A stretch of DNA of 64,000 nucleotides from Eledone cirrhosa. Lineage: Eukaryota. The translations under genes were made by a program, and so were the position numbers. Shown piece after piece: positions 60,137 to 60,552 of this stretch; the first letter of the stretch is position 1, and every line of letters begins with the position of its first letter. The notes beneath the pieces were generated by a model. That model saw only the letters and a list, made by a program, of their open reading frames with translations. It ran no database searches and was not told the origin of the DNA. The stretch covers positions 23,126,001 through 23,190,000 of the forward strand of contig OZ024746.1 of assembly GCA_964016885.1 (NCBI GenBank). Direction: 5' to 3'.

Positions 60137-60140
<4 letters not shown>

Positions 60141-60552
60141 GATATTAAACAAATGGAAACTATATTTATAAAACCATATTTATTTCACTATACATATTTC
60201 AGGGATACCATATTAAAAATATGGCATGCCTTCTTCAGATAAAATACAATATATAAGCAGTTTTATAAATAAATTTGACGTACCATAAATATTGATCAAC
60301 TTCCATGTGCGAAGTTGGTTTGGTACCAAACCAACTTCGCACTGCTTATATATTGTATTTTATCTGAAGAAGGCATGCCATATTTTTAATATGGTATCCC
60401 TGAAATATGTATAGTGAAATAAATATGGTTTTATAAATATAGTTTCCATTTGTTTAATATCGTATATCTACTCCAAAACTTGTTGAGTGCTTTATATCAG
60501 TTATAAAATATTTACTTGTTGTAACCCAACAATTTTAAATAAAACTTTTGCA
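60137..60552 (+). mobile_element. Family B module with 125-bp inverted duplication, two opposed hammerheads and a 36-bp palindrome
   Basis: Arms at 60137-60261 / 60341-60465. The hammerhead tattttat CTGAAGA aggcatgccatat-tttta-atatggtatccct GAAA tatgtata gtgaaata lies at 60356-60421(+) and 60181-60246(-). Confidence 0.85.

Follow-up and report, generated by a model that had tools for sequence, protein, structure and literature searches.

A head-to-head repeat pair with predicted hammerhead motifs in Eledone cirrhosa, probably a Penelope-like insertion

What kind of event leaves two identical arms facing away from a perfect palindrome, with a hammerhead-like core in each arm on opposite strands? 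Such a locus lies in the window analysed here, a stretch of 64,000 nucleotides from Eledone cirrhosa (contig OZ024746.1, positions 23,126,001 to 23,190,000 of the forward strand; all coordinates below are those of the window). The first-pass annotation had read it as one recent insertion that had gone through two fold-back or template-switch events, which implied an unusual architecture. We conclude that it most likely arose through routine Penelope-like retrotransposition and has an insertion shape that has already been described; the form that had seemed unusual is published as typical of insertions by Penelope-like elements (PLEs). Statements about the papers cited by number refer to the parts of their text that were available.

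Anatomy of the inverted pair

The locus belongs to a stack of short repeats with TA microsatellites between them (60044–60940). By exact walk, its inverted arms are perfect over a maximum of 127 nt, from 60135 to 60261 on the minus strand and from 60341 to 60467 on the plus strand; the arms had been described as perfect but 125 bp long, the 2 omitted nt being those that merge with the TA run. The palindrome at the junction (60307–60342, centre GGTACC at 60324/60325) is perfect over all 36 nt, as had been annotated, and consists of 18 nt from the 5' end of the left copy and their inverted duplicate. It had been said to abut the right arm, and the two are indeed in contact, but by an overlap of 2 nt (AC, 60341–60342) that lie inside the arm. 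By our reading of the palindrome list, no other perfect palindrome of at least 18 nt that is not a TA or CA microsatellite occurs in the 64 kb, where base composition predicts 2.3 × 10⁻⁶ of them.

Followed outward from the centre of the palindrome, the two halves prove to be the same sense strand of one repeat family, in the order 18 nt shared, 47 nt on the left only, 125 nt identical, 85–87 nt on the right only, and then (TA)n. The left family copy (60135–60324, minus strand) has a tail-less 3' end at 60135–60137, a common end of the family in contigs of the sequencing runs, and meets a (TA)n microsatellite that forms the left target flank (60044–60139). The right copy (60341–60552, plus strand) is 5'-truncated just upstream of hammerhead stem I, keeps its full 3' end and meets the right (TA)n target flank (60551–60570). 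Its private 3' tail (60468–60552, plus strand; 85 nt, or 87 nt counted from 60466) is 92% identical over 86 nt to a further copy at 43 kb. The left-only 47 nt (60260–60306, minus strand) carry AC at either boundary, which constitutes a 2-nt microhomology or overlap at the join, and 36 nt that include their downstream part are 89% identical to the same 43-kb copy. There is no ORF in the unit, the longest stop-free stretch being 48 codons. A spliced intron was considered for the 47 nt and rejected, as the segment begins with AT and ends with AC instead of showing GT-AG ends; we also take it to lack a U12 donor consensus.

Both other family copies in the window lie on the minus strand. At 43310–43584 stands a solo copy with hammerhead and tail, TA runs on both sides and no inverted arm; at 44000–44146, after a TA run, stands a diverged (77%), 5'-truncated copy that starts at about the predicted cut site. 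The arms are 100% identical to each other and 88% to the 43-kb copy, which has a different 5' end without such a palindrome and belongs to another subfamily. Since the private segments of both arms are family sequence, neither arm can have served as the template for the other, a point against a fold-back artefact; a single template folded back with a skip was rejected for the same reason, family sequence being present in each arm that is missing from its partner. What the anatomy requires is two separately copied tracts and one 2-nt microhomology join, which falls short of demonstrating the proposed pair of fold-backs. The proposed single recent insertion agrees with the identity of the arms, which points to one template or a young subfamily.

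Contigs from 4 of the 23 listed public sequencing runs were aligned to the window; two of these runs, X1 and X3, represent one sample, possibly the source of the window itself. No RNA run was listed as containing the sequence, which is no evidence on expression. The 8,994 contigs placed in X1 include those of microsatellites and of the neighbouring repeat. Summed contig depth in X1, which is not a copy number, is about 1 × 10⁶ over the arms and 62 in the flank bin 59950–59978. Depth declines toward the 5' end, from about 350,000 (60211–60268) to 120,000 (60269–60297) and, in X1, 5,178 (60298–60326), a profile like that of a 5'-truncated retroelement, to which subfamily divergence contributes too. 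Depth in X4 and X5 is zero over 60298–60326, a gap that proves nothing.

The same contigs speak to the left arm's end. Among the loose ends listed, 54 contigs in X1, 39 in X3 and 3 in X4 (which carries another organism label) exit the alignment at 60467, and none do in X5; the consensus beyond this base is a TA run (agreement 0.73 in X1, 0.67 in X3 and 1.0 in X4). Since contigs depart there into TA repeats, the point where the left arm stops counts as a regular alternative 3' end for the family, and it is the "tail" signature of Penelope. The arms further have in common G60414/C60188, a position where the other letter makes up 1,074,050 of 1,075,577 X1 depth units (>99.5%). Complete identity together with this shared rare letter indicates one donor or template, or one small young subfamily.

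Other repeats crowd the same stretch. Directly to the right of the locus, 60570–60770 is the 3' fragment of a LINE-like ORF, presumably an RTE-type C-terminus; about 36–40 nt at its 5' end are inverted in place relative to a 98.8% identical copy at 50489–50685, and many contigs continue non-inverted at 60731. Another short repeat is present at 59950–60043 and 60811–60866, in two copies 79–84% alike that point into the TA array from both sides, from which it follows that the TA microsatellite took at least four insertions. The LINE fragment at 50.5 kb is enclosed by 139-nt inverted repeats (50283–50421 and 50905–51043; 98.6%) with CA/GT microsatellite ends. The window also contains a lone 5S rRNA match of 71 bits (11233–11357, minus strand), possibly a pseudogene or SINE head, and a TMEM272-like membrane protein exon (13952–14443, plus strand; atlas 0.94–0.95), the sole host coding piece noticed.

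The predicted hammerhead

The core CTGAAGA...GAAA occurs once per arm in opposite orientation (60364–60405, plus; 60238–60197, minus), so both strands encode it, as had been pointed out. Around it we predict a minimal type I hammerhead at 60350–60426 on the plus strand (cut 60413/60414) and its mirror at 60176–60252 on the minus strand (cut 60189/60188). Predicted stem I has 13 bp with one bulge and extends imperfectly over about 120 nt; predicted stem II has 13 bp with one C-C mismatch and is closed by an A-U pair in both window variants; predicted helix III has 2 bp within the self-complementary word ATATGTAT, and the cleavage triplet is AUA. Self-pairing of ATATGTAT includes G-U pairs and is weak (−2.2 kcal/mol); 46% of X1 depth turns helix III into a perfect palindrome.

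This motif shares with the minimal type I hammerheads of metazoan PLE pLTRs an intact core (C3-U4-G5-A6-N7-G8-A9, G12-A13-A14, A15.1-U16.1 and H17), a long helix II, a 2-bp helix III, a loop whose self-complementarity fits it for dimers (15.2-16.2 and loop 3 are palindromic, which would give a dimer helix III) and a dispersed, high-copy occurrence (PMC4209133). N7 is the only core position that appears among the 25 listed variant rows. Two features separate it from the motifs described in the available text of PMC4209133, where a G10.1-C11.1 pair is typical, as is one additional nucleotide separating 9 from 10.1: stem II is closed by A-U with no clear extra base at 9/10.1, and stem I is much longer. 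On account of the A-U closing pair we file it as a variant motif and not as a typical minimal hammerhead.

The annotation of opposed twin hammerheads holds for the cores, one in each arm and on opposite strands; as ribozymes they are a predicted motif, with no Rfam match. No Rfam hammerhead reached the gathering score in the window, and there was none among the 13 matches at E ≤ 10 in 60100–60600, so the ribozyme call rests on a descriptor, on stems read by eye and on family variation. The stricter descriptor (core, stem I of at least 5 bp, stem II, UH), which was written after the motif had been seen, yielded 5 matches across the window, where 100 block shuffles gave a mean of 0.01 (maximum 1), and 3 of the 5 belong to this family. 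Comparison of the two window variants shows all 13 of 13 stem I pairs preserved, along with two compensatory changes and one one-sided change in stem II; a covariation control on these 2 sequences was not significant (128 of 500 shuffles scored as high). In folding calculations the hammerhead fold of the monomer lies 3.3 kcal/mol above the MFE. According to PMC4209133, in the parts available, single minimal motifs do not cleave, dimers cleave at a low level, and a minimal helix III depends on a second motif in direct tandem. The motif is plausibly a dimer-type hammerhead variant.

Four of the 11 hammerhead-like places examined in the window have inverted arms of their own of at least 50 nt (the 60-kb locus, 40453–40864, 44230–44349 and 49757–50057), which makes inverted hammerhead repeats routine here. 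The place at 40453–40864 has 109-nt perfect arms with a compact minimal hammerhead motif in the spacer at 40609 (plus), whose helix III word is perfectly palindromic; it is a second young inverted insertion. A 120-nt hairpin (92%) at 44230–44349 apparently has its centre in stem II of a different hammerhead, of which, read by eye, only the 3' half is left. Yet another family, whose core is a compact CTGATGA...GAAA, is found at 49757–50057, 6364–6387 and 9925–9948, the first of these a core-only match with 64-nt inverted arms (92%).

A Penelope-like insertion and its alternatives

We put at about three in four the probability that the head-to-head pair is one insertion of a non-autonomous PLE, a solo pLTR, with a Penelope reverse transcriptase (RT) acting in trans. 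The locus has the head-to-head inverted 5'-truncated copy with a junction palindrome, an optional 3' tail (85–87 nt) on one copy only with two alternative 3' ends, a (TA)n or AT-rich target (TA runs end all three family loci in the window) and a type I hammerhead in the pLTR, the latter as a Rfam-negative motif. A target-site duplication is unreadable inside (TA)n.

Each of these traits has a published counterpart. In PMC3846280, as far as its text was available, head-to-head inverted repeats with junction palindromes are abundant in Penelope elements and represent the commonest orientation, and an optional tail and microhomology joins are described, with A. vaga Pen2, Pen2a and Pen3a among the elements; according to the corresponding part of PMC8557442, PLEs in general have a microsatellite bias, a one-sided tail and, at their 5' end, an inverted copy that is itself 5'-truncated. 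The inverted pLTRs of EN+ PLEs (the A. vaga elements, PMC3846280; Penelope/Poseidon, Neptune, Nematis and Naiad, PMC8557442) show likewise a head-to-head copy, a tail on one copy, a microhomology join, 5' truncation and an AT-rich or microsatellite target. The locus differs from the inverted pLTRs in those texts in that no ORF lies between the repeats (a solo pLTR pair), in having no readable target duplication and in its tail, which at 85–87 nt is more than twice the published 30–40 bp; its junction palindrome of 36 bp compares with 18 and 38 bp in A. vaga PLEs (PMC3846280). Naiad and Chlamys lack canonical hammerheads and so fit less well as relatives. From the excerpts of PMC8969392 and PMC13282606 it emerges that inverted pLTRs are met routinely in curation and that Penelope families occur in octopus, with ribozymes going unmentioned. 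Our literature search found no paper on this particular family, a weak negative given that the host name was not part of the search, and scans of JGI metagenomes with two family motifs gave 0 loci each.

Animal retrozymes, which are linked to PLE pLTRs, are defined by direct tandems in the available portions of PMC7761336 and bioRxiv 10.64898/2026.07.22.740005. The family is like animal non-LTR retrozymes, as these sources present them, in that its unit of about 275 nt is non-coding, carries a type I hammerhead motif, has a GC content under 50% and is proposed to rely on PLE enzymes. Retrozymes, however, are defined by direct tandem units and circular RNAs, whereas the three loci in the window comprise one solo copy, one fragment and one inverted pair, and no direct tandem of hammerhead-bearing units was found within the window.

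The insertion may be pictured as follows. A GIY-YIG endonuclease would cut both strands of (TA)n, and each DNA end would prime its own cDNA, the right one at the end of the tail (60552) and the left one internally, 85–87 nt upstream (the equivalent of 60465–60467). The right cDNA would halt just 5' of the predicted ribozyme, with the left cDNA running 65 nt longer; the end of the left cDNA would then fold back at GGTACC and copy 18 nt of itself, and its new AC end would pair with the GT end of the other cDNA in a snap-back microhomology join. The private segments call for two templated tracts, which fits two-ended priming better than self-priming of one molecule. Precedents exist for the separate steps: the accessible text of PMC11167929 reports that the anole Poseidon protein cleaves and extends both strands of AT-rich DNA, that two reverse-transcription start sites define the tail and that uncleaved RNA is used, and that of PMC5728401 describes snap-back synthesis followed by microhomology annealing. 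As in such snap-back MMEJ, our join has a short inverted duplication followed by microhomology to the other end; the published case concerns endonuclease breaks in Drosophila, whereas here the enzyme might be either polymerase theta or the PLE RT.

An autonomous RT and GIY-YIG partner with this pLTR was not found within the 64-kb window, which has only two other copies, so that only its architecture ties the pair to the Penelope machinery. Two ORF remnants give weak GIY-YIG matches under the curated cut-off (1605–2423, plus, Pfam E 0.0087; 6954–7466, minus, Pfam E 0.00047), and no GIY-YIG was found at E < 0.001 with full frames as the query. Their protein-atlas neighbours lie at 0.96, with GIY-YIG on 31% of members; the remnants are likely Penelope-type endonuclease ends, and in the window they have no sequence in common with the repeat family.

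Among the alternatives, one keeps the element class and changes only the age of the palindrome. It is possible, though we hold it with reserve, that the 36 nt were inherited. If the donor pLTR began with them, the left copy would simply extend in full to 60342, and its joining at AC to a second, 5'-truncated cDNA would be the sole new event; alternatively, the whole unit came from a master locus. This reading requires fewer events. It has precedent in the pLTRs with 18-bp and near-perfect 38-bp 5' palindromes in the available text of PMC3846280, and X1 depth over 60298–60326 (5,178, against 62 in the flank) indicates that the upstream sequence is present in other copies. These depth bins, however, mix contigs with half and with the whole palindrome, and the 43-kb copy has a different 5' end and no palindrome, although it belongs to another subfamily. 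Within the Penelope-like reading the palindrome may have arisen by a single snap-back during this insertion or may have been carried over from the donor pLTR, as with A. vaga Pen3a.

Long perfect palindromes are unstable, and a symmetrical structure that was later trimmed would take account of this: two cDNAs would have ended at the same GTAC site and annealed to a palindrome with 190-bp arms, from which a microhomology deletion or a skip by the RT then removed 47 nt. The right half does equal the left half minus 47 nt, with 2 nt of direct microhomology, and microhomology deletions among Penelope copies are noted in the portion of PMC3846280 available. We nonetheless think this unlikely, as two independent cDNAs would have to stop at one internal base and a stabilising deletion should have broken the centre, where 18 bp of perfect symmetry persist.

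The chance that the assembly or library produced the structure, through a fold-back chimera or family copies mis-joined across TA runs, is slighter still. Long microsatellite flanks and a very high-copy family invite such errors, PMC8557442 warns in its available text that these structures trouble assemblies, and among the contigs listed from X1, X3, X4 and X5 none spans the palindrome or the 60341 join. A fold-back chimera, though, cannot give each arm family sequence absent from the other, and a random mis-join would not give 127/127 identity that includes an allele at about 0.1–0.4% of family depth; moreover, the left arm ends at a natural family end, and older, diverged inverted structures (92%) occur in the same window. 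The sequence does contain the inverted structure, and the genome probably does too.

Long perfect inverted arms, TA flanks and the lack of an ORF would also suit a MITE or foldback DNA transposon that had inserted at TA with the arms as terminal inverted repeats, which we consider very improbable: the right arm is internal, with 85 nt of family sequence beyond it, the family carries a hammerhead motif, and the solo, one-directional, 5'-truncated copies at 43 and 44 kb largely refute inverted termini in all copies.

Cleavage, transcripts and what the locus means

Other contigs contain antisense (left arm)-to-sense (right arm) joints within 60168–60481 that resemble further head-to-head junctions, and in 12 of the 21 joints listed the 5'-most end falls 0–8 nt past the predicted cut. 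The 44-kb copy also starts at about that point. A doubtful extension of the Penelope-like reading is that the locus is a frozen twin-priming product, with two RT start sites, and that the 5' ends of many other copies were set by hammerhead cleavage. The nominal P for the clustering on the listed rows (1 × 10⁻¹¹ under a uniform model, 2 × 10⁻⁵ when weighted by depth) is not trustworthy, because the 0–8 nt window was chosen afterwards and X1 and X3 repeat the same loci; the calculation also left out 3 listed rows of another kind (60679–60631, 60508–60476, duplicates). Such clustering can be mimicked by the element's long stem I, a sense copy pairing with itself over about 120 nt, and by a homology boundary; many joints have letters between them that are not known, and the counts are not independent, which leaves the clustering as a lead. 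In the part of PMC11167929 available, hammerhead cleavage was not seen in anole RNA-seq.

The first-pass annotation was right that a transcript of either strand would carry the predicted ribozyme together with its antisense, if RNA crosses the unit. Read-through RNA from either side would make the antisense arm first and then a 127-bp duplex that hides the predicted ribozyme. Folding calculations agree: over the whole unit the two strands form hairpins of −228.6 and −233.7 kcal/mol with a stem II probability of 0.0, and in RNAs started at the centre stem II reaches 0.99 while stem I is rare (0.002 and 0.11). As the head-to-head geometry always has the antisense arm transcribed first, the ribozyme is predicted to be blocked, not switched. 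A selected regulatory device, with the ribozyme held off by its antisense or the pair acting as a bidirectional self-cleaving cassette, is barely credible: the motif lies on both strands and centre-started RNAs would keep stem II (0.99), but zero divergence between the arms means youth and not conservation, the surroundings are a stack of repeats, and opposed copies supply no direct tandem partner in cis (PMC4209133, in the text available). The locus would then be a dead copy, possibly one that yields small RNAs, rather than a working ribozyme device.

As a single locus the pair matters little beyond being a clean, young specimen of a published Penelope-like insertion shape. The wider interest lies with the hammerhead, whose role in PLEs is called unknown in the available text of PMC7761336. 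If the 5' ends of other copies were indeed set by cleavage, they would serve as genomic evidence of in vivo cutting by a PLE hammerhead that sets the ends of templates; given the abundance of the family, mapping its 5' ends and inversion joints across the genome could test this role.
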